41,709 nt of DNA, from contig JAAYHI010000023.1 of NCBI GenBank assembly GCA_012727415.1, positions 1 through 41,709 on the forward strand, read 5' to 3'. The first letter of the stretch is position 1. The number at the start of each line of letters is the position of its first letter. The stretch is from Bacillota bacterium (GTDB lineage: Bacteria; Bacillota; Proteinivoracia; UBA4975). This document shows, one piece after another, positions 11,781-29,093 of this stretch. Under the pieces are notes generated by a model. It searched no databases and was not told the origin of the DNA. It saw only the letters and a program-made list of their open reading frames with translations. The translations under genes were made by a program, and so were the position numbers.

Positions 11781-11875
11781 GGGAATGGAGGAGTCCTGGT
11801 GGACTCTCTGGACTTCAAATCCAGTAACGGGCAGTGTATGTCCGTGGTGGGTTCGATTCCCATGCATTCCCGCCA
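11781..11875 (+). tRNA. selC: tRNA-Sec (anticodon UCA)
   Basis: 95 nt. It has a long acceptor stem (GGGAATG.../...CATTCCC), a 6-bp D stem GAGTCC/GGACTC with a 4-nt loop, and an anticodon stem CTGGA/TCCAG with loop CTTCAAA (UCA). It also has a long variable arm, T-loop GGTTCGATTCC, discriminator G and an encoded CCA. Confidence 0.93.
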
Positions 11876-20061: not shown

Positions 20062-21522
20062 ATGAAAAGACCAGTAATAGTAATAGATTTCGACGGCCAC
20101 TACAGCGGCCTGGCCAGAAGCATCCGCAAACTCAAGATCTGGTCGGAAGTATTGCCCTGCCATGCAACCCTGGAGGAAATTGCAGCCCGCAAGCCCCTGG
20201 CCCTTATTGTCGCCGGGGACGGGGCAGCATTAACCCCGGAACTGTTGAGCCGGGGCTGGCCGCTGCTGGTCCTGGGCCAGGGAGTAAAGCTGCTGGCAAG
20301 ACTTACCGGGGGGAACCCCGTTGAACAAGGAAGCATCCACTCCACAGAACTTAACAGTACTGACCCCCTCTTTGCCGACTTTCCGGAAGCCATTGAGCTC
20401 AGGGGGAAAGTCCAGGCCCCTCCCGGCTTTGATGTCATTGCCGGTACAGCCACTGAGGCAATAGCTGTTGCCGATAAAAACAGAAAGCTATATGGCCTGG
20501 AATTCCATCCCGCCCCCCAGCAGACCGACATTCTCCTGGCCAACTTTCTGCAGGGAATTTGCGGCCTGCAGCCCAACTGGTCTGCGGGGGAATATATTGA
20601 CCAAGCCGTAGAAGCCATCAGGGTGCAAGTAGGCAAGGAAAAAGTCATCTGCGGCCTCAGCGGCGGCGTCGATTCCGCTGTCGCTGCCGCCCTGGTGCAC
20701 CGGGCAGTGGGGGACCAACTGACCTGCTTTTTTGTGGACCACGGTCTGCTCCGCCAGGATGAGGCCGGAGAAGTCATGAAGGCCTTTGCTGGCAAGGGCA
20801 TCAAGGTCCTGCAGATCGACGCCCGCCAGAGATTCCTGAAGGCCTTGAAAGGCGTTGCCGATCCTGAGGCTAAGCGCAAAATAATCGGCCAACAGTTTAT
20901 CCGGGAATTTGAAGCCGCCGCCAGGCAATTGGGGGATGCCAAGTTCCTGGTGCAGGGCACCGTCTACGCCGATGTCATCGAAAGCGGCAGCGGCGATGCC
21001 GTTGCCGTCAAGAGCCATCACAATGTGGGCGGCCTCCCTGAAGAGATGAAATTTGAGCTCTGCGAGCCATTGCGGGAACTGTTTAAGGATGAAGTGCGGG
21101 AGGTGGGCCTGCAACTGGGGCTGTCCGAGAAAATAGTCTGGCGCCAGCCCTTTCCTGGCCCCGGCTTGGGGATTCGGGTGCTGGGAGAAGTCACAGAAGA
21201 GCGCCTAAACATAGTGCGGCATGCTGATGCCATCGTCAGGGAGGAAATGGCCGCCGCCGGCCTCGAGCGGGAAGTTTGGCAGTACTATGCCGCCCTTCCC
21301 AACGTCCGCAGCGTCGGCGTCAAAGGCGGCCGCCGCACCTACATGGAATTGGTGGCAGTGCGCGCCGTCACCAGCATCGACGCCATGACTGCTGAGTGGG
21401 CCAGGCTCCCCTGGGAGGTCCTGGAGCGCATCTCCCGGCGCATACTCAGTGAAGTGGACCAGGTCAACCGGGTGGTATACGACATCACCCCCAAACCCCC
21501 CGGCACCATCGAATGGGAATAG
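20062..21522 (+). CDS. guaA: GMP synthase; ATP-pyrophosphatase and dimerisation domains intact, N-terminal amidotransferase domain degenerate
   Basis: 'CGLSGGVDSAVAAALVHRAVGDQLTCFFVDHGLLR', 'KSHHNVGGLPE', 'VWRQPFPGPGLGIRVLGEVT' and the C-terminal 'ITPKPPGTIEWE' are near-identical to canonical GuaA. See the findings for the N-terminal domain. Confidence 0.93.
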   Translation: MKRPVIVIDFDGHYSGLARSIRKLKIWSEVLPCHATLEEIAARKPLALIVAGDGAALTPELLSRGWPLLVLGQGVKLLARLTGGNPVEQGSIHSTELNSTDPLFADFPEAIELRGKVQAPPGFDVIAGTATEAIAVADKNRKLYGLEFHPAPQQTDILLANFLQGICGLQPNWSAGEYIDQAVEAIRVQVGKEKVICGLSGGVDSAVAAALVHRAVGDQLTCFFVDHGLLRQDEAGEVMKAFAGKGIKVLQIDARQRFLKALKGVADPEAKRKIIGQQFIREFEAAARQLGDAKFLVQGTVYADVIESGSGDAVAVKSHHNVGGLPEEMKFELCEPLRELFKDEVREVGLQLGLSEKIVWRQPFPGPGLGIRVLGEVTEERLNIVRHADAIVREEMAAAGLEREVWQYYAALPNVRSVGVKGGRRTYMELVAVRAVTSIDAMTAEWARLPWEVLERISRRILSEVDQVNRVVYDITPKPPGTIEWE

Positions 21523-21561
21523 TATCAAGAAAGGCAAAAACCCCGATGTTCCGGGGTTTTT
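21508..21561. repeat. Direct repeat copy 1: last guaA codons (IEWE-stop) plus the guaA terminator (att-like)
   Basis: ATCGAATGGGAATAGTATCAAGAAAGGCAAAAACCCCGATGTTCCGGGGTTTTT. By hand alignment it matches 25876-25929 at 34 of the first 39 positions and in the 3' stem half CGGGGTTTT. Confidence 0.8.
21536..21561 (+). terminator. Rho-independent (bidirectional) terminator of guaA
   Basis: AAAAACCCCG-ATGTTC-CGGGGTTTTT. The A-run and T-run flanks let it also terminate the convergent minus-strand ORF 21636-21872. Confidence 0.85.
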
Positions 21562-21635
21562 GACCTTATAAGTGGGATTGATAACAAAATGATAACATTA
21601 ATTTTTTTGGGGTAATGATATCGTGGATACCGGGT

Positions 21636-21872
21636 TTACTTTTTTACTAATTGACTAATGGCAAAAAGAACCGCTAAAACAATGCCCCATTCCCATAAAG
21701 AGGGAAACGTAAGTATGATTATTATTGCGGCTATAATTGACGCTAAGATTGGGGCATGACGACGAAACCATTTTGTCAATACGAGTGCAGACAAAAATGC
21801 CATCAGGATTGCTTTTGGTGTTAAGAATTCATCACGAACAAAATTTTTAAATATCGCAGCTATCTCATCCAC
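21636..21872 (-). CDS. Small two-TM membrane protein, unknown function
   Basis: 78 aa, GTG start with AAGGGTG upstream. It has two clear hydrophobic helices ('AILMAFLSALVLT', 'ILASIIAAIIIILTF...GIVLAVLFAI'). AT-rich codon usage marks it as island DNA. Confidence 0.45.
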   Translation of the reverse strand: MDEIAAIFKNFVRDEFLTPKAILMAFLSALVLTKWFRRHAPILASIIAAIIIILTFPSLWEWGIVLAVLFAISQLVKK

Positions 21873-21911
21873 ACTATCACCCTTTTAAGACGTCTATTAT
21901 TACGCCAATAG

Positions 21912-22379
21912 CTACTTGAAAGGATGTGATCGCCATTCCTCTAGCCATTTTACCAATGTGCTGCCTACAGCACATAAATAGCTAATCCGGTCTGGGTCTG
22001 CGCAGTATGTGTTTATACTTTCAATGTTACCGACAGTTGCGAAGAGATTATCTACTCAGGTTGCAGCTCTGCTGGGTTAAGAGAACAGTATATTGGGAAA
22101 CTCTTCCGTCCCTTCTAGGCTTTCTTGTTTATTACAGAGCCATTCATCAAGCAAAAATTCAATTGAATCCTTTTCGATATATTCGATATATATGTAGAAG
22201 AGCGAAGCAATCCCGGAGTTATCAAAGAGGCTCTTTCTTTTCCAGAGTGTCCGCTCGAATCTGTAATTATCTGCAGCAACTGCTAGTGTCCAGAATAATC
22301 CTGTCGAGTGATAGCGGATTGTTAAATTGCAAAGGTATACATTATGAAGCGGACGTGGGAGCGCATTTAGAGTTATATA
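21912..22379 (-). pseudogene. Decayed minus-strand gene (fragments in different frames, no usable start)
   Basis: Hand translation of the minus strand gives a roughly 100-codon open frame at 22080-22379 ('...ADNYRFERTLWKRKSLFDNSGIASLFYIYIEYIEKDSIEFLLDEWLCNKQESLEGTEEFPNILFS*'). It has no ATG/GTG/TTG in its first ~70 codons. A second protein-like frame lies at 21912-22049 ('NLFATVGNIESINTYCADPDRISYLCAVGSTLVKWLEEWRSHPFK*'). Family not recognised. Confidence 0.35.
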
Positions 22380-22566
22380 TTATTAGGTCCGAGTGGAAAA
22401 GATCGTTTATTTGCGCGTCTTATTTTTTTGAGAGCAACTAATCCTGAGTAGCGGAAGAAATAGCCCTCAATTTTGCATTATTCATGGACGTACCTATCTG
22501 GGGGGGGACATAAAAACGGCGGAGCATAATCCAACAACAATGTCGAAATTTGTATTGAGGAAATTG

Positions 22567-22595
22567 TTGACAATCCCCCAAAAGTAAGGTATGCT
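22567..22595 (+). promoter_or_regulatory. Strong sigma-A-type promoter (TTGACA-17-TATGCT)
   Basis: Perfect -35 TTGACA at 22567-22572, a 17-nt spacer and -10 TATGCT at 22590-22595, about 140 nt upstream of the peptidase gene. Confidence 0.55.
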
Positions 22596-22736
22596 GAGAA
22601 TATAAAGTCAAAGGAGATGGATATTTTTTAGTCGCCATTACTATTATACAATCTTTACGTCCAAGATACACTTTTTGTCTATATGTGCCTAAACATATAA
22701 ACAAAAAATAATATCTAGTATAAAGGAGGTCCCCCA

Positions 22737-23420
22737 TTGAAGGTACTGTTATTAAGTCTTAGTTTGTTGCTCGTTTTCTTACCCACTGCAAATGCACTAA
22801 TTGAACCGGAACAAGCCCCTGATTATTATTCACTTGAGTATCAGACTATATTAGCATCACAATCTGATTCTTTAGTGTCCCCACAATCTTTAAGAGGTTA
22901 TAGCTTTAAGTTTCTGGATGTTCCTGTCTATAGTCAACAACAAACCAACTGGTGTGGCCCAGCATCGACGAAAATGACCATTCATAGTATAAATGGATCT
23001 AGTCCTTCTCAATCCGTTCTCGCTGAAGAAACCGATGCGGATCCAAAGGGGTCATATGTTTACCTGATTGAGAGGTCCTTAAATAAATATATCGCAGGGA
23101 AACCATACAAATATTATACAATAAAAGATGTTAATCTAATTAATAAAAGTGTTCAATCCTTCCAAAACGGGCTGCCAGTGATTTATCGCCTAAAAACGAA
23201 GAACTTGCCAGGTTATGGGGCACATGATACTACTCATTATGTTGTCGGGACAGGGTACTTTGTTGCCTGGGACGAAACTGGAACTATTCGGAATGATGTC
23301 TGGTACAATGACCCTAATGGTTACCGTGCAGGATGCCTAGGAGAGCATATTATACCGTTCAGCACCTTAGAAAACGCTGTTCGAAGAGCTGGAGACGGTT
23401 GGTTCATTCCAAAAAAATAA
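22737..23420 (+). CDS. Secreted papain-fold cysteine peptidase (C39-like / C47-like)
   Basis: Signal peptide 'MKVLLLSLSLLLVFLPTANA'. The nucleophile block is 'VPVYSQQQTNWCGPASTKM' (Gln, then Cys73). 'THYVVGTGY' carries His167 and 'VWYNDP' carries Asn/Asp191-192, in the Q-C-H-N/D order and spacing of papain-like peptidases. TTG start follows RBS AAAGGAGG. Confidence 0.7.
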   Translation: MKVLLLSLSLLLVFLPTANALIEPEQAPDYYSLEYQTILASQSDSLVSPQSLRGYSFKFLDVPVYSQQQTNWCGPASTKMTIHSINGSSPSQSVLAEETDADPKGSYVYLIERSLNKYIAGKPYKYYTIKDVNLINKSVQSFQNGLPVIYRLKTKNLPGYGAHDTTHYVVGTGYFVAWDETGTIRNDVWYNDPNGYRAGCLGEHIIPFSTLENAVRRAGDGWFIPKK

Positions 23421-23539
23421 TGATATTGATTTTTTATTAGTTATCCGTGAAGGCTGATCTTTGAATGGCTATTGTTAAGACACCGCTTGTTCGGAGGCTA
23501 TAAACAAAATGATACTTCGTGAAGTAGAGGAGGGTCCCC

Positions 23540-24676
23540 TTGAAAAATATTTTTCTCTTTTTCTTGCTTTCCATTATGTGTATTACCTTGGTGGGATGCT
23601 CCAGTACTAGGCCTTTGGTCTTAGAAGTGGTCGACACTCCTTCGATAGAGTACGAGGAAGTTCTCTTTACCTCACTGTATAATACGCTTGATAGCTCGGC
23701 GTTGACTGTACTAGGTTTTTGTGAGGACAGTCTATATTTTGCAGAGAACATCTGGGAGGAACAGCCGATAGCGCAAAGTCTTAATAAATATAATATTAGT
23801 TCAGGACTTATTGAAACAGTTTTTTCATTTCCTCAGAGTCCGCCTCTTGCCTTAATGTCACTGGTAGTCCAGGACGACGCTCTGTATTTTTCTGCATTTA
23901 ATAGTAGGACACAGGATCAATATTATATCTATAAATATGATAGTCAGTTAACTTTACTGGCAGAAGGTTATTTAACTCACCCACTCAGCACCCCAGACTT
24001 AGTTGAGTACAAAGACAGTTTGTTATTTATTGACGAATATTATTTAGATGATAATTATTATTATCGGGTTAATCAAATAGCTGAAGGTAAGTGCTCAGAG
24101 ATAATATCAGATCGGTCTTCAGATAGTGACTCCGTTGCCGTCGTTGTGTCCTCTTTAACCGCTAACACGAATTATTTTGCCTATTCTGTTACCACTGCGG
24201 ATAGCACCCGAGTATATATTGCACAGGATAGCGCTATCTTTAAGGAATTTACCATTGAATTTCGTGTGGGCGAGATAGCCTTTTTGGACGAATATATTCT
24301 GATTCCTTATTATGCTGGAGACTTAGAGCACCCTCGAAATATTGAGGAAGGTATAATGTTAATTGAAGTGAATAAGGATACTCGCTACCAACTGGAGGCT
24401 TTTAATAACCGTTTGTATGATTTCTGCCCTATCAATGATAGCATTGTCTTTGCTGATATATATAAGGACTTAAGCAATTCGAAAGAAAACTACGTGCCTT
24501 ATCTACTCAGTGCTGAGGAGGGAACATTATATGCGGCAAAACTGGATAAAAGCAAATTGCCTAATCAGCCTGTTTTCGCTGCAAGGCTAGACGATACTGA
24601 GTTCCTAATGTTTAATTGGTCTCTTGAGAACGATCAATTACAAGCGGTACGGGTTAGAGTTAAATGGCAGAATTGA
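23540..24676 (+). CDS. Lipoprotein with repeated beta-propeller-like blades (DUF5050-like)
   Basis: Lipobox 'ITLVGC|SS'. Six or seven repeats of a 'D-x-hydrophobic-(Y/F)F ... Y(I/R)Y' unit occur, e.g. 'DALYFSAFNSRTQDQYYIYKYD', 'DSLLFIDEYYLDDNYYYRVN' and 'DSIVFADIYKDL'. TTG start follows RBS GAGGAGGG. Confidence 0.65.
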   Translation: MKNIFLFFLLSIMCITLVGCSSTRPLVLEVVDTPSIEYEEVLFTSLYNTLDSSALTVLGFCEDSLYFAENIWEEQPIAQSLNKYNISSGLIETVFSFPQSPPLALMSLVVQDDALYFSAFNSRTQDQYYIYKYDSQLTLLAEGYLTHPLSTPDLVEYKDSLLFIDEYYLDDNYYYRVNQIAEGKCSEIISDRSSDSDSVAVVVSSLTANTNYFAYSVTTADSTRVYIAQDSAIFKEFTIEFRVGEIAFLDEYILIPYYAGDLEHPRNIEEGIMLIEVNKDTRYQLEAFNNRLYDFCPINDSIVFADIYKDLSNSKENYVPYLLSAEEGTLYAAKLDKSKLPNQPVFAARLDDTEFLMFNWSLENDQLQAVRVRVKWQN

Positions 24677-24784
24677 CAAATTGTATCCTCTGAAATAGCA
24701 TCTTTCAATACTAACATGCTCCCCTTTGGGTAAACACCTGAATTAACAATAATTCAGGACTACGCAAAGGGGGGGTTTCAGTAA

Positions 24785-25198
24785 GAAACAATTAGCTACC
24801 TGACCACCCTAGGGCTTTCTCACATCAGGGACAATCTCTACCAGTTGTTGCCGGATATAACCGGCGGAGAAGTTTCTTACCTGCAATTTCTACACAGTCT
24901 CGCCAAAGAAGAGATTACAGCTAGGGAGAAAAGGTCCAGGGACCGCCGTTTGAATTCGGCAGACTTCCCCTACATCGGGACCCCTGACGACTATGACTAT
25001 AGCTTCAACAACTCGGTATCTAAACGCCAAATTACTCAGCTATTAGACTTGTCCTGGGTTGAAGCTGCCTACAACATAGGATTTCTTGGCCCCTCAGGTG
25101 TAGGGAAGACACACCTTGCTGTCACTCTTGGAATCCACGCGGTGGAATCTTCTCGATCACCTGTGGACCTTAGTAATATTGTTTTTACCGTCCATTAG
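24785..25198 (+). mobile_element. IS21-family istB (helper ATPase) remnant, truncated at both ends
   Basis: 'LSHIRDNLYQLLPDITGGEVSYLQFLHSLAKEEITAREKRSRDRRLNSADFPYIGTPDDYDYSF...LDLSWVEAAYNIGFLGPSGVGKTHLAVTLGIHAVES' matches the IstB N-terminal region and Walker A. There is no ATG (a stop lies at 24782-24784). Similarity ends near 25150, before Walker B. No istA is present. Confidence 0.75.
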
Positions 25199-25342
25199 CT
25201 CTTTACCAAGGGGACTATCAATTGTTTTTACGCTTATCGTCGGTGTAGCTTTTGCTTTTATATTGATAAATGTAACGTTCCATCCATGGAAAAAGAATTT
25301 GGGTAATTAGAGAATAAAGTCGCCATCCTCTATTTGCGCAGT

Positions 25343-25366
25343 AAAAACCCCGATATTTGGGGTTTT
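25343..25366. repeat. Third, partial copy of the guaA terminator hairpin (also a plausible terminator)
   Basis: AAAAACCCCGAT-ATTT-GGGGTTTT. The first 12 nt are identical to 21536-21547. Confidence 0.6.
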
Positions 25367-25875
25367 ACTGTGCGTATGCTGTGTGTGTTTTTGACATGGA
25401 TCCTTGATACTCGAATTCATATAAGCCTCCAAGGCCCCCACTACAAAAAACTCGGATTAAAGGGGGAAAGCAATTCCACATTGCTGCGGACTTACACGTG
25501 CCTATTGAAACCATTTTGCATTCAATTTTTTACTCTCAAGGCGCGTTGCTGGACGAATTAAAGGCAATTATTTTATTCGCTAAAAAGGATAGACGCAAAA
25601 AATACCGGGAAATACGTGCCAGAAGGATCTTCCAGTTTTTATGACGACGATTCAAAATGTCGATGTCCTGGTAACTTGGATGCGGATTTTTCGGTCGTAG
25701 AAATCGAAGGCCAGAGATATTGACGCCGTCCGCGTCGTATCTGCTTTGTGGGGCTATCTCGCCCGTAGCGTGTAACAAAAACAATGTAAACCAAAATAAT
25801 AGAGAGAAATTAGCCCAAATATAACCCTAGAGCAGGTGAAAAATACCTCGAAACACCTGGTATTAATACCGGATT

Positions 25876-25929
25876 ATTGAATGGGAATAAGAGCAAGAAA
25901 GCCAAAAACCCCGAAAACATCGGGGTTTT
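25876..25929. repeat. Direct repeat copy 2: degenerate duplicate of the guaA 3' end plus terminator (att-like)
   Basis: ATTGAATGGGAATAAGAGCAAGAAAGCCAAAAACCCCGAAAACATCGGGGTTTT. It still reads I-E-W-E-stop in frame, but the sequence upstream of it is unrelated AT-rich DNA. Confidence 0.8.
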
Positions 25930-26173
25930 AGCATTTAGGGTCTTGAGAATACTGGTAATATATAGATATCATTGACAAAATATTATACTTCTATATTGCT
26001 GCAAAGTCAACCGGATTTACATAGGGGTTTTACTGGAAGGGAATCCAAACAATTCCTCGAATACTTGATTCAGACCTTTACGGAAAGAGAGGGGATATAA
26101 TGAAAGACTAATAAAATAGTTACTATGAAATGAATCGTTCCATAAATTAGAAATGAAGGGTGGGATAGACTAA

Positions 26174-27028
26174 ATGTATCGGAAGATAATTTCTTTTTTC
26201 TTGGTTGTATTAGTGTTTCTATCTAGTGGAAGGGCACTAGCTTCAGGTGTAGTGGAAACAGTTATTTATCAAGAAGAACTGCTAGATGATAACGGGAACC
26301 CTGTGAGCATTACCGTAAAGAAACAAAACGGTGATCTTCTTGTAGAAGTGTGTGTGAACAATCAGCTTGCTAAAACCGCACATGTAGTTGGGGGAAAAGT
26401 AGATCCAACAACGGAAATCATTTTAACCAACCACGAAAGCAACCTCACGACTAAACATATTGTTAAGGAGATACCGTATTGTATTGTTGAGGAGTCCCCT
26501 AAGGCGCATGGTAATATTTCTACCATGCAAGGTGGACTTATTGCCCCTTGCGCTGTCCCGTCATATCCACTAAAGATGACCGGTTATAGTGGTGTTTGGG
26601 GTAAATGGGGTTACCTTTATGCAGAAGATTTTTATTACACTCGTGATGTTTTCCTTTTAATAGAACCAGGGACTTCATTAGCTCTGGTCGTTGCCTTACT
26701 TGTTGGGATAGCGTTGGGGGCAGTTGCCTTTACCGTAAAAGAAATAATCTATGCTCTCGGGGGTACGCTGATTGGCTCGGTGGTAACGTCTCTAGCGAAA
26801 GGAACGGTACGTCAAGACGTTGTAAAAACATTGGGTGAGGTATTTGTAGATGGAAAATTTGTTTCAGGAATAAGAATTGAAAAATATACCACAAAACTTT
26901 ACAATAGAACGGGTGGACTAGCAAAAATTAAACATGGAGCAAGCTATGGTGGACCATACACAACTCTCAGTGAAGCTCTTTTCTGGGGTATAGAGTATTA
27001 TTGTTTGCATGAACCTTGGTTTAGATAG
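26174..27028 (+). CDS. Secreted or membrane-inserting protein with a Gly/Ala-rich hydrophobic core, unknown family
   Basis: 284 aa. Signal peptide 'MYRKIISFFLVVLVFLSSGRALA'. The central segment 'SLALVVALLVGIALGAVAFTVKEIIYALGGTLIGSVVTSLA' contains small-xxx-small glycine-zipper-like spacing. No family recognised. Confidence 0.55.
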   Translation: MYRKIISFFLVVLVFLSSGRALASGVVETVIYQEELLDDNGNPVSITVKKQNGDLLVEVCVNNQLAKTAHVVGGKVDPTTEIILTNHESNLTTKHIVKEIPYCIVEESPKAHGNISTMQGGLIAPCAVPSYPLKMTGYSGVWGKWGYLYAEDFYYTRDVFLLIEPGTSLALVVALLVGIALGAVAFTVKEIIYALGGTLIGSVVTSLAKGTVRQDVVKTLGEVFVDGKFVSGIRIEKYTTKLYNRTGGLAKIKHGASYGGPYTTLSEALFWGIEYYCLHEPWFR

Positions 27029-27114
27029 AAAATCGGTTAAGGAGTATACATGGTTTTTGTTTTTGGAGTAATTACTCAGGCTTCCAGTTTGGCGGCTAAG
27101 AATGGGGGATAAAC

Positions 27115-27531
27115 TTGATAGAAAAAAAACAGTGCACCATGGTAATTGTAAGGTTAGCGATTGGTGGAATAGGTTTTCTTCTTCTGCCCCTATTTTTTCA
27201 TATTTATTTCCTCAAGGCATACTACGTCTTTAGTTCCGCAATTATGTTTATTGGGACTGTAAAACACTTAGTATGCCTCAACCGGGAAAGGCTACGTGAA
27301 CAACCTTATCTCTTAAACGTTGTGAGGGAAGGATTGCTGTTTACGACCTGGGTTGTTACATCATTTTTCGCTATTGCTGTATTCTCTAGGGGTTATTCAC
27401 CTGCAGAGTTATTACAACTCATTACACCTACGCGATTGGTACTGATGCTTCTTGCTTTAGTCGCAGTTTGTTTGGGTTCAGGTGCCCTTATTTACAGCCG
27501 AAAGAAAAAAAAGTTTCGCGGTATTTCATAG
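27115..27531 (+). CDS. Four-TM membrane protein, unknown family
   Basis: 138 aa with four hydrophobic helices and a C-terminal 'SRKKKKFRG' tail. The start is either TTG-27115 or ATG-27139. Confidence 0.5.
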   Translation: MIEKKQCTMVIVRLAIGGIGFLLLPLFFHIYFLKAYYVFSSAIMFIGTVKHLVCLNRERLREQPYLLNVVREGLLFTTWVVTSFFAIAVFSRGYSPAELLQLITPTRLVLMLLALVAVCLGSGALIYSRKKKKFRGIS

Positions 27532-27725
27532 GAACGCGACACCGGGAATTTGCGCCATTGTCAGCATCCTCCTTAATACCTCCCCTCATAATTGACCTAT
27601 AAGGGTAGGTTTCTATGGGGCTGCTGCAATGGCCTTCTCTATCTGCAAAAGCAGGGAATTTTACTTTGCAGCTTCCGGGAAACCTATCTTGCAATTCCCG
27701 GTAAAACTAGTCTACAACAAACATT

Positions 27726-28963
27726 TCAAGGGCTCATGCTACTTGTAGGGGGTTTGCAGGCGCGGCGGTGGAGATGCAAGTAGAGGATTACCACTGGTGT
27801 AAGGATGAGGCCGGAGACGACCAGGGATATAGAAATGCTGGTTTTCAGGGCGATGAAGCCGATTAAGGGCCCGCTGATAATCTGTCCCAGGGAGTTGAAC
27901 TGGCCATAGGTGGAAAGGACTGTTGCCCTGATACCAGGTTCAATGCTCTCGTTGAGCCAGGCTCTGTAGATGGGGCCATTGGTGGTCCTGAGAATGTAGT
28001 AGGTTAGGTAGGTGGAAGCTGCCAGGGGGAAGTTTCTGGCCACAGCAAAGCTGACTATTGCTAGCAGCATCCCTGAGTTGATTGCTGTCAGCAGCCATAC
28101 TTTCTGCAGCTTGCCAGTCCTGGCCAACCTGCGTTTTATATACTCTACAGCTGCGATGCTGGTGACCATGGCAGTGCCATTGATCAACCCAACCCATACT
28201 ATGGGCGGGACTACAATGGCAGGAAGCTTGACATTGTCAATGATATGGGCTATCCACAGCCTGTCCAGTCCTTCGCTGTACAGGCCGTAGAAGAAGGTTA
28301 CTGCCATCATGACAATGAGGAAATGTTTTTTTTTGATGGACTTGAGCCCCTGAGTAAAGATATGTACCATCTGACGGGCAGGGCCTCTATTTTGGGTAAT
28401 GGCAGGTGTAAAGGCAGTCTCGGGCATAAAGCGCAACAAGAAGAGCCCTAGCACTATGAAGAGGGCACCGCCTATGAGCAGGGGCAGATTAATCATAATT
28501 GTCCCAATGAGGGTGCTGATGATAATGGCCAGCAGGGCGCCTACCTGGCCGACCTGGGCCCCTCTGAGAAATCTTTCTCAAGGCCGCGACCTCCCAGTTC
28601 ATCGGTTATCCATGCTTCATCGGCTCCGCTGGTAAAAGTGTAGCCAATGCCCCATACTACCTGGCTAAGAAAGATGAAGAGAAAATTGGGAAACAGGCCT
28701 TCGAGGAAAAAGCCCAAGCCAATTAAGCACAGTCCAATTACGACAGATAGCTTGCGGCTTTTAAGGTCAGCTAAAACTCCTGTGGGAATTTCAAAGAGAA
28801 AAGTGGATAATTCCAGGGCCGTTCCTACCAGGACCAGCTGCATGGCATTAAAGCCTGCAATTTCAATGCGATAAAGCTCGTTAACCGTGAAGACCATTTC
28901 AAAGAGGAAAGCAGAGACCCCTGCGTAGATTAGGTAGATTTTATAGGCGGGCTTAGAAGTCAT
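27726..28963 (-). pseudogene. MFS transporter (EntS / MFS_3-like) interrupted by a frameshift
   Basis: ORF 28541-29002 carries TM1-4 with MFS motif A 'GVLADLKSRKLSVVIG', and ORF 27726-28496 carries the remaining TMs. The downstream frame stays open upstream of its Met as '...FLRGAQVGQVGALLAIIISTLIGTIMINLPL'. The two halves therefore join by a 1-nt shift near 28560-28600. Confidence 0.7.
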
Positions 28964-29093
28964 GGCTACCTCCGGAAGGATAGAATGATTCCATAATACC
29001 ATATCTCGCAGCTGCAGAAGGTGGGTACTGTTGTATCAGCAGGGTTCTTTGCGGTAGAATGAACTGGAACTTAGTGAATGGGAAGCTTAATTC

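Follow-up and report, generated by a model that had tools for sequence, protein, structure and literature searches.

An AT-rich, strain-variable genomic island at the 3′ end of guaA in an uncultured member of the Bacillota

The guaA gene encodes GMP synthase. In an uncultured Bacillota bacterium (GTDB lineage Proteinivoracia, UBA4975; assembly GCA_012727415.1) it is followed by about 6 kb of AT-rich DNA, which is a real, strain-variable genomic island situated in a well-known integration hot spot. The window analysed here is the entire contig JAAYHI010000023.1 (C169 in our numbering; 41,709 nucleotides) of a metagenome-assembled genome (MAG) of 1.84 Mb in 193 contigs, 98% complete, denoted G000. 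An original prediction listed, between guaA and a gene of the major facilitator superfamily (MFS), two pairs of a secreted and a membrane protein, a small open reading frame (ORF) with two transmembrane (TM) segments, a decayed gene, an istB fragment of an insertion sequence (IS) of the IS21 family, and non-coding debris. The ORF and profile analysis yields the same content (Table 1).

Table 1. Features of the guaA locus, in positions of the window
Feature	Position	Strand	Evidence or remark
guaA, GMP synthase	20062..21522	+	NCBIfam PRK00074, E 5e-176; its 3′ end is the insertion site
attL-like site	21508..21562	+	last 15 nt of guaA (IEWE-stop) plus terminator hairpin
24-nt motif GATTGATAACAAAATGATAACATT	21576..21599	+	conserved; alleles A and C diverge ~10 nt beyond
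orf78, 78-aa ORF with two TM segments	21636..21872	-	low-GC
Decayed PDC-S50 (AlbA_2/Schlafen-like) gene, C-terminal ~170 codons	21912..22379	-	PADLOC, E 5.9e-11
Secreted papain-like cysteine peptidase, Peptidase_C39_2, 227 aa	22737..23420	+	Pfam PF13529, E 6e-14
Lipoprotein, 378 aa, lipobox LVGC	23540..24676	+	predicted beta-propeller, near-orphan family
IS3-family left end, orphan, 64-nt hairpin	24716..24779	+	abuts the IS3 OrfA start in G004:C20
IS21 istB fragment, N-terminus to Walker A	24785..25198 (istB part 24785-25150)	+	Pfam IstB_IS21, E 3e-26
Small membrane-protein gene remnant, C-terminal part	25116..25310	+	C-terminus ...LPSISSLPRGLSIVF...FHPWKK matches a 118-aa membrane protein of G008
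attR-like site	25838..25930	+	decayed copy of the guaA end (~45 nt, interrupted by a 10-nt insertion) and a terminator hairpin
Exported 284-aa protein	26174..27028	+	signal peptide, beta-rich N-domain
138-aa membrane protein with four TM segments	27115..27531	+	partner of the 284-aa protein
Orphan IS21-family left end, terminus plus first ~20 nt of istA	27547..27723	-	right border of the island
TetA(P)/Tet(40)-like MFS transporter, right flank	27726..29002	-	NCBIfam matches for both halves

In 400-nt sliding windows, the G+C content is 58–61% within guaA, 45% at 21400–21799 and 35–44% from there to about 27400, the sole exception being positions 24800–25199 (48.5%), which cover the istB fragment. 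It recovers to about 50% by 27600–27999, and the low-GC island spans approximately 21.55–27.72 kb. The computed profile thus bears out the sharp drop claimed earlier for the end of the guaA terminator and the recovery near 27.7 kb. The genome mean is 52.3% with a standard deviation of 4.0% (1-kb windows), and positions 21501–27500 form the longest run below 44% among all 193 contigs. The flanks were described as having well over 55% G+C; this holds for the left flank, as the values for guaA demonstrate, but the right flank, with the MFS and NUDIX genes, has only 45–54%. Codon usage does differ from that of the flanks, as had been suggested: G+C at third codon positions is 0.30–0.37 in five island ORFs versus 0.605±0.058 in 635 long ORFs genome-wide (first percentile, 0.43), and the genome-typicality index is 0.53–0.63 versus 0.67–0.80 in the flanks. 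However, the TTG starts, cited in the same connection, do not discriminate the island, since the flanking transglutaminase (17057) and NUDIX (29094) genes use TTG too.

The absence of an intact mobility gene stands as well. Pfam and NCBIfam profile searches revealed no recombinase domain in any ORF of 21.5–27.7 kb and neither a relaxase nor a conjugation gene in the island; there is no integrase, and only the first ~20 nt of an istA are left. The whole genome encodes two tyrosine recombinases, both Xer-sized Phage_integrase genes located on other contigs.

The end of guaA is present twice. Both copies, attL-like and attR-like, contain a terminator-like hairpin (21535–21562 and 25905–25929, respectively). 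The direct repeat, D1, formed by the 21508–21562 region and positions 25876–25914, has a length of 39 nt and 87% identity, with an 11-nt core, GAATGGGAATA, identical in the two copies; in the pairwise alignment, weaker similarity continues for about 45 nt upstream of the repeat across the 10-nt insertion. A 38-nt stretch of the attR-like copy is 95% identical to the guaA end of another genome, G008. The two repeats enclose only the left 4.4 kb of the island, below called module A (21547–25930), and the attR-like copy is both the right end of this module and the limit of homology to the related genome G002 (Firmicutes bacterium UBA5286). Just left of the attR-like core, the debris at 25773–25895 has copies with 78–80% identity elsewhere in G002 (C19) and in G004 (UBA5509; C20), the latter copy being situated about 270 nt from an IS3 end.

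Just past the guaA terminator lies the 24-nt motif GATTGATAACAAAATGATAACATT, which holds two TGATAACA repeats. It is single-copy and occupies the same place in two allelic states of the island, A and C (see below), and in G002, and occurs nowhere else in eight genomes of the family. It could serve as an arm-type site for a recombinase or as an operator.

A gene end present in two copies is what site-specific integration into the 3′ end of a protein-coding gene classically leaves behind. Of the traits expected of an element targeting guaA, the core shared by attL and attR within the guaA 3′ end is observed, and the recombinase and transfer genes are absent. Taken as a whole, the island shows the classical features of genomic islands, that is, atypical composition, presence/absence polymorphism, insertion at a conserved gene with direct repeats, and remnants of mobility genes.

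The first gene in module A is orf78, which has no family match in Pfam, NCBIfam, PADLOC or PHROGs. The synonymous divergence (dS) between the orf78 genes of G000 and G002 is 0.67, similar to that of guaA, with the ratio of nonsynonymous to synonymous divergence (dN/dS) equal to 0.26; the gene appears to be an old resident of the locus. The next feature is the remnant of a PDC-S50 defence gene. It covers positions 231–383 of the PADLOC profile of length 387, with an interruption, rather than the full ~387 aa, and it is broken further where 88 nt present in G002 are missing, at 22052/22053. The remnant is 61% identical to the intact 412-aa PDC-S50 protein of allele C. The possibility that this decayed gene beside attL was an integrase was considered and rejected given the PADLOC identification. 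As the remnant is on the minus strand, the plus-strand ORF at 22007–22441 overlying it is spurious.

Three IS remnants are present in the island. The 64-nt IS3 end, which exists in multiple copies in related genomes, frequently at contig ends, was also considered as a repetitive extragenic palindrome or a miniature inverted-repeat transposable element, and both interpretations were rejected as the hairpin is an IS3 end. The istB fragment corresponds to Pfam positions 26–118 of 238, about 40% of istB, and also matches NCBIfam IS21_help_AAA. A frameshift lies near its start, and it joins directly onto what is left of the C-terminal part of a small membrane-protein gene; G002 shares both fragment and junction. 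A relative of the latter remnant is retained at full length in G008, where guaA is followed by a secreted protein and then by the 118-aa membrane protein. A complete IS21, with istA and istB between terminal inverted repeats, is not found in the island, whereas intact copies reside on contigs C29 and C49. The debris at 25.3–25.9 kb, examined for hidden gene fragments, gave no Pfam matches.

The third IS remnant, an orphan IS21 left end, forms the right border. Its terminus is 2 nt away from the stop codon of the MFS gene, and its orientation is opposite to that of the istB fragment. Two stretches of the same genome, each immediately upstream of istA, resemble it: C49:1588-1764 (92% identity) and C29:2275-2450 (80%).

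The MFS gene at the right flank had been described as broken. Indeed, in the window it is split by a 1-nt deletion, a missing A at 28572, but the split is seen in this assembly only: the gene is intact, encoding 412 aa, in all other conspecific assemblies (L031–L034, L046 and L049), and the missing A is present in four conspecific assemblies. The frameshift may be either a strain-specific pseudogene or an assembly error. The MFS ortholog in G004 has an independent frameshift near its 3′ end, and a second low-GC block, with genes for secreted proteins and an ABC transporter, is situated in that genome between the MFS gene and sdaAB.

The first of the two intact cassettes consists of the peptidase and the lipoprotein. 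The peptidase scores 53.2 bits against the Peptidase_C39_2 profile, well above the cut-off of 24, and hence belongs to this family. It has a signal peptide ending with ANA, the catalytic Cys in QTNWCGP and the His in THYVVGTGY; both catalytic residues are kept in a paralogue from G005. Weak matches to PHROG endolysin families (E 4e-7) are centred around the catalytic Cys, and a sequence search against PDB chains yielded nothing meaningful. The AlphaFold2 model of the lipoprotein is all-beta, with the predicted local distance difference test (pLDDT) score of 65 and the predicted template modelling score of 0.67, and Foldseek retrieves only generic propellers for it (TM-score about 0.5). Among 1.84 billion representative proteins, the lipoprotein has relatives only in four clusters at ≥84% identity, plus one homolog with 33% identity. 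Both genes of the cassette start with TTG located behind near-identical GGAGG(G)TCCCC spacers.

The dN/dS ratio is 0.20–0.23 for the peptidase compared with G002 and G004, and 0.16–0.20 for the lipoprotein compared with G004. The initial suggestion that the intact genes are under selection is in agreement with these between-species values, which support purifying selection on both proteins. The cassette is not restricted to the guaA locus. A Logan contig (SRR8925713; L041:9700-12773) contains an 84%-identical lipoprotein gene and a remnant of the peptidase 3′ end, with a type I restriction-modification system upstream and a gene for a large beta-helix surface protein downstream of the lipoprotein gene. 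As this context is quite different, the cassette must have changed its location at least once.

The second cassette encodes an exported 284-aa protein and a membrane protein of 138 aa. The former has a Gly/Ala-rich hydrophobic helical hairpin (approximately residues 165–208) and a strongly conserved C-terminal region of 70 aa. It has no match in Pfam, NCBIfam, PADLOC, PHROGs or PDB sequences, nor in 50,697 phage records searched with tblastn, and the profile of the second cassette retrieved nothing meaningful among PDB chains; the AlphaFold2 model is unusable (pLDDT 37). The single homolog of the 284-aa protein, with 44–48% identity, is encoded by a metagenomic contig (L039) of 2.2 kb with 37% G+C. 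In this contig, it is followed by a homolog of the 138-aa protein (35% identity), and the pair adjoins an ArpU/DUF722 phage-type late regulator (phrog_36, E 2e-26). Thus, selection on this cassette is supported indirectly, via co-conservation of the two proteins (48% and 35% identity) in one unrelated contig. The secreted-plus-membrane pairs located 3′ of guaA in G008 and G004 were considered as possible homologs, but no similarity was found.

We then turn to variation within the species. The same island structure with the same junctions is present in at least ten independent assemblies from ENA, NCBI, JGI and Logan, obtained from different samples by different pipelines. Eight conspecific contigs, each selected because its lipoprotein is identical to that of the window, align colinearly with the window at 99.4–99.65% identity over 13.5–34.7 kb. 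In these nine sequences, only three variable sites fall into positions 21438–27758, compared with 47 for guaA and some 40 for the MFS gene. The density of single-nucleotide polymorphisms (SNPs) is 0.49 per kb in the island and 5–30 per kb in the flanks overall, being 13.8 per kb in the left flank and 5.5 per kb even in the quietest flank (Poisson P = 5e-10). Because the non-coding debris varies no more than the genes do, this low diversity reflects recency rather than constraint; for the same reason, invariance among conspecific strains is no evidence of selection.

The locus proved to be polymorphic when strains were compared, as the original prediction had proposed to check. Three allelic states were found in conspecific contigs sharing an identical MoxR protein. 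State A corresponds to the island described above. In state B, positions 21533–26929 (5.4 kb) are deleted, the junction CAAGAAA|CATGG lying at a 3-nt microhomology. Only the last 33 codons of the gene for the 284-aa protein are retained; the residual 796 nt are 100% identical to the window, and the 138-aa gene is intact (L046, L049). State C diverges at 21608 into a set of three genes, an intact PDC-S15 (FRG), an intact PDC-S50 (E 1e-102) and a helix-turn-helix (HTH) control gene, which together form a candidate anti-phage module. This set occupies L050:12579-15310, and the contigs stop short of its right border. Since the deletion and replacement alleles coexist in the species, the island is dispensable.

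Comparison with other genomes shows a mosaic pattern. In G002, the same module is situated beside guaA, including the istB junction and the attR-like copy. The identity between G000 and G002 is 60–89% in guaA and 58–78% in orf78, and leaps to 95–100% at about 21837; inside the island it is organised in blocks of ~99–100%, ~90–97% (the peptidase gene) and ~99%, and the homology ends at 25930. By the Nei-Gojobori method, dS is 0.70–0.75 in guaA and 0.67 in orf78, against 0.147 in the peptidase gene and 0.017 in the lipoprotein gene. In G004, both cassette genes are found in the same position, the lipoprotein gene intact and the peptidase gene truncated (dS 0.21–0.24). Directly 3′ of guaA, G004 has a gene for an IS200-like Y1 transposase of 262 aa with a C-terminal HTH (L025:4612-5400), in the place that orf78 and the defence-gene remnant occupy in G000.

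In G005, from another genus, a different C39-like peptidase and a lipoprotein-like gene are located 3′ of guaA amid IS and transposon elements. In G006, guaA is directly followed by a purine permease gene and purE. Hence, the island is not conserved and syntenic in all relatives, the outcome named initially as contradicting its acquisition: it is absent from G006 and partial in G002 and G004. Finally, in G013, a complete genome from the same class, a second, decayed guaA 3′ end of about 85 nt lies 11.1 kb downstream of the gene (L065; C1:2199800-2213000). Between this pair of guaA ends are a fragment of a Mob_Pre relaxase gene, a Fic/DOC gene, a gene with an HTH and a DUF6119 gene interrupted by IS3 insertions, and the locus is another integrase-less remnant at the guaA site.

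The horizontal origin, as proposed originally, is supported by several independent lines of evidence: composition and codon usage, polymorphism within the species, the 90–100% identity of parts of the island to the congener G002, the direct repeat of the guaA end and the three IS remnants. The term "immobilised" is correct in that the island has no mobility genes of its own, but the block has clearly changed genomes recently, homologous recombination through the flanks being the most likely route. Despite the loss of mobility genes, the island has been exchanged recently between both strains and species.

It is probable that the island is a decayed integrative element of the guaA site, which now moves passively as an allele and carries two exported-protein cassettes. 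Such an element would have entered the last guaA codons through site-specific recombination, supplying a replacement 3′ end and terminator (the present attL), while the original guaA end would have been displaced 4.4 kb downstream and decayed there (the present attR). Insertions of IS3 and IS21, followed by deletions, could then have removed the integrase and any transfer genes and, at that, truncated the PDC-S50 defence gene and the small membrane-protein gene, so that the two exported-protein cassettes and the 78-aa membrane ORF would have survived intact. The second cassette and the IS21 end would be adjoining accessory DNA of the same hot spot. At present, the movement would be passive, by homologous recombination via guaA, the MFS gene and homology internal to the island.

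Module A is read as a stripped remnant of an integrative element because of the duplicated guaA end, the documented targeting of guaA by such elements and the similar signature in G013. Homologous recombination as the present mode of movement is favoured by two observations. The invariant block runs across attR, with one end inside guaA and the other inside the MFS gene, and the left breakpoint of the G002 identity is inside orf78 rather than at attL.

Several observations weigh against this scenario. Neither the genus nor the family yielded an intact, integrase-bearing element that targets guaA, and hence the repeat and analogy are the grounds for the site-specific origin. The left limits of allelic variation (~21608) and of the high identity to G002 (~21837) do not match the attL core. 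Further, orf78 is situated within the att-bracketed module and yet is as diverged as core genes; therefore, either the insertion predates the species split, or the module itself is mosaic. Retrieval of contigs by lipoprotein identity lowers the diversity at and near the lipoprotein gene, although the contrast with the flanks stays when this gene is removed (0.40 per kb). Finally, with the generic propeller matches of the lipoprotein and the failed model of the 284-aa protein, the cargo functions are predicted at most.

An alternative is that module A, mobilisable in cis or in trans and similar to a cis-mobilisable element (CIME), has lost its integrase but has usable att sites, and is excised and integrated to this day by the integrase of a visiting, related guaA-targeting element; this route, instead of homologous recombination, would explain its recent spread between species. 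Module A does have att flanks with no recombination or transfer modules, as CIMEs do; the core is exact in both att copies, the G002 homology stops precisely at the attR end, and integrase-less modules flanked by guaA-end repeats recur, as in G013. A precedent is provided by the GIsul2 integrase, which mobilises an integrase-less att-flanked unit (PMC9376610). On the other hand, outside the core the att arms are degenerate, with 87% identity and the 10-nt insertion, and no guaA-type integrase was found in G000 or in the examined loci of G002, G004, G005 and G008. The left breakpoint of the G000/G002 identity block inside orf78 is again not at attL. The invariant block crosses attR and takes in the second cassette and the IS21 end, and thus it is the whole 6.3 kb that spreads, not the att-bounded module. 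We consider mobilisation of this kind unlikely.

Still less likely is that the island is a remnant of a prophage or a phage satellite, the cassettes being phage accessory genes, such as a lysis-type peptidase and morons. Satellites of the type of Staphylococcus aureus pathogenicity islands do use the 3′ end of the GMP synthase gene; the peptidase has the weak endolysin matches mentioned above, and the sole homolog of the second cassette adjoins a phage-type regulator. However, Pfam, NCBIfam and PHROGs yield no structural, packaging, replication or lysogeny gene, nor a fragment thereof, in 21.5–27.7 kb, the 284-aa protein is unmatched in the phage records, and a Sec signal peptide together with a lipoprotein partner is unlike the typical arrangement of endolysin and holin.

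The idea that the region is native, vertically inherited and AT-rich for functional or mutational reasons, or else a chimera of assembly or binning, might be suggested by the core-like divergence of orf78 from G002, by C39-like peptidase and lipoprotein genes downstream of guaA in two genera of the family and by the fragmentation of the MAG, but is hardly tenable given the presence, absence and replacement of the region within the species, dS of 0.017–0.15 in the island versus 0.7 in the flanks, the IS remnants and att-like duplication, the identical junctions in independent assemblies and the direct adjacency of guaA to the purine genes in G006.

As regards the cargo, the layout with an exported protein and a membrane partner is present in both cassettes, and no toxin or immunity family is matched in Pfam, NCBIfam, PADLOC, PHROGs or PDB sequences. 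The layout weakly suggests that each cassette could encode an exported effector and a membrane-anchored protective partner. The peptidase may be a hydrolase of the cell wall or of surface proteins. More speculatively, the two cassettes could be undescribed antagonism modules of Gram-positive bacteria, traded at the guaA hot spot as integrase-less att-flanked units. The C39-like peptidase would then be lytic and neutralised by the propeller lipoprotein, and the protein with the glycine-rich hairpin would be neutralised by the four-TM immunity protein. If so, allele B would be an orphan-immunity genotype, maintained because the toxin is still made by neighbours.

Similar pairs are known. In staphopain and staphostatin, and in amidase and immunity pairs of the type VI secretion system such as Tse1 and Tsi1, a secreted cysteine protease or amidase has a co-encoded protective partner. 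The first cassette resembles them in that the gene of an exported papain-like peptidase is followed by a co-directional gene of an all-beta, envelope-anchored partner, both under purifying selection. Unlike these systems, it shows no detected homology to them and has no secretion-system genes, and inhibition of the peptidase by its partner is a lead taken from such parallels.

No donor lineage can be named, because the cargo proteins are near-orphans: sets of 5.8 and 1.84 billion proteins contain hardly any relatives of the peptidase, the lipoprotein or the 284-aa protein. The few distant homologs of the cargo are encoded by short metagenome contigs with low G+C (35–40%).

As an integrase-less island at a guaA attachment site, the locus belongs to an already well-known kind. 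Tandem accretion of CIMEs at att sites of integrative and conjugative or integrative and mobilisable elements is exemplified by the ICESt1/ICESt3 family at the fda 3′ end. Module A resembles CIMEs in being att-flanked, lacking recombination and transfer genes, residing at the 3′ end of a protein-coding gene beside accessory DNA and varying among strains. In contrast to CIMEs, no helper element or integrase was identified, and the evidence here favours spread of the whole block by homologous recombination. The island is also similar to defence islands, given the same core flanks with alternative cargo, IS debris, low G+C and the PDC-S50 remnant in allele A, but the defence content of allele A is dead and its live genes encode exported proteins.

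Among elements known at guaA itself, Tn5801-like integrative and conjugative elements and genomic islands of Gram-positive bacteria integrate in the guaA 3′ end with 11-bp repeats (PMC4844618), and GIsul2, with its CR2-sul2 unit, integrates at the GAGTGGGA core in guaA (PMC9376610). The island shares with them the insertion in the last guaA codons, with the gene left intact, the short direct repeats of the guaA end and the accessory cargo, and its core GAATGGGAATA falls on the Glu-Trp-Glu codons that the GIsul2 core GAGTGGGA also covers. The likeness is one of site and core. Unlike these elements, the island has no integrase, excisionase, relaxase or conjugation gene, its repeats are longer and degenerate, its cargo consists of exported proteins and a defence-gene remnant rather than resistance genes, and its host is an uncultured member of the Bacillota.

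The known landing site at the guaA 3′ end is thus in use in an uncultured Bacillota lineage as well. The locus provides a quantified, metagenome-only example of an island that lacks mobility genes and keeps circulating as a hot-spot allele, with an apparent recent sweep within the species and exchange between species whose core dS is about 0.7. The two near-orphan families of exported proteins, apparently under purifying selection, are candidates for functional study. The annotation of the contig is corrected in two places, as the MFS pseudogene is assembly-specific and the plus-strand ORF over the defence-gene remnant is spurious.

Some minor observations concern guaA. Its glutaminase domain (20062–20640) scores 59 bits with NCBIfam guaA_Nterm against the cut-off of 172, and "LVLGQGVKLL" stands where the GICYG nucleophile block is expected, in G002 likewise. 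The N-terminal part is the most polymorphic and diverged stretch of the gene (60–73% nucleotide identity to G002). G008 retains GICYGMQ, and guaA of G004 encodes only 321 aa, the glutaminase domain being entirely lost. In G000, there is a single guaA match. The glutamine-amidotransferase domain of this guaA looks dead.

Scans for promoters and terminators yielded no excess over shuffled controls, and the Rfam scan of 21.4–29.2 kb produced nothing above the threshold. The only tRNA gene of the window is that of tRNA-SeC at 11781–11875, in the vicinity of selB, selD and fdhD-type genes seen in conspecific loci, and therefore the organism uses selenocysteine.

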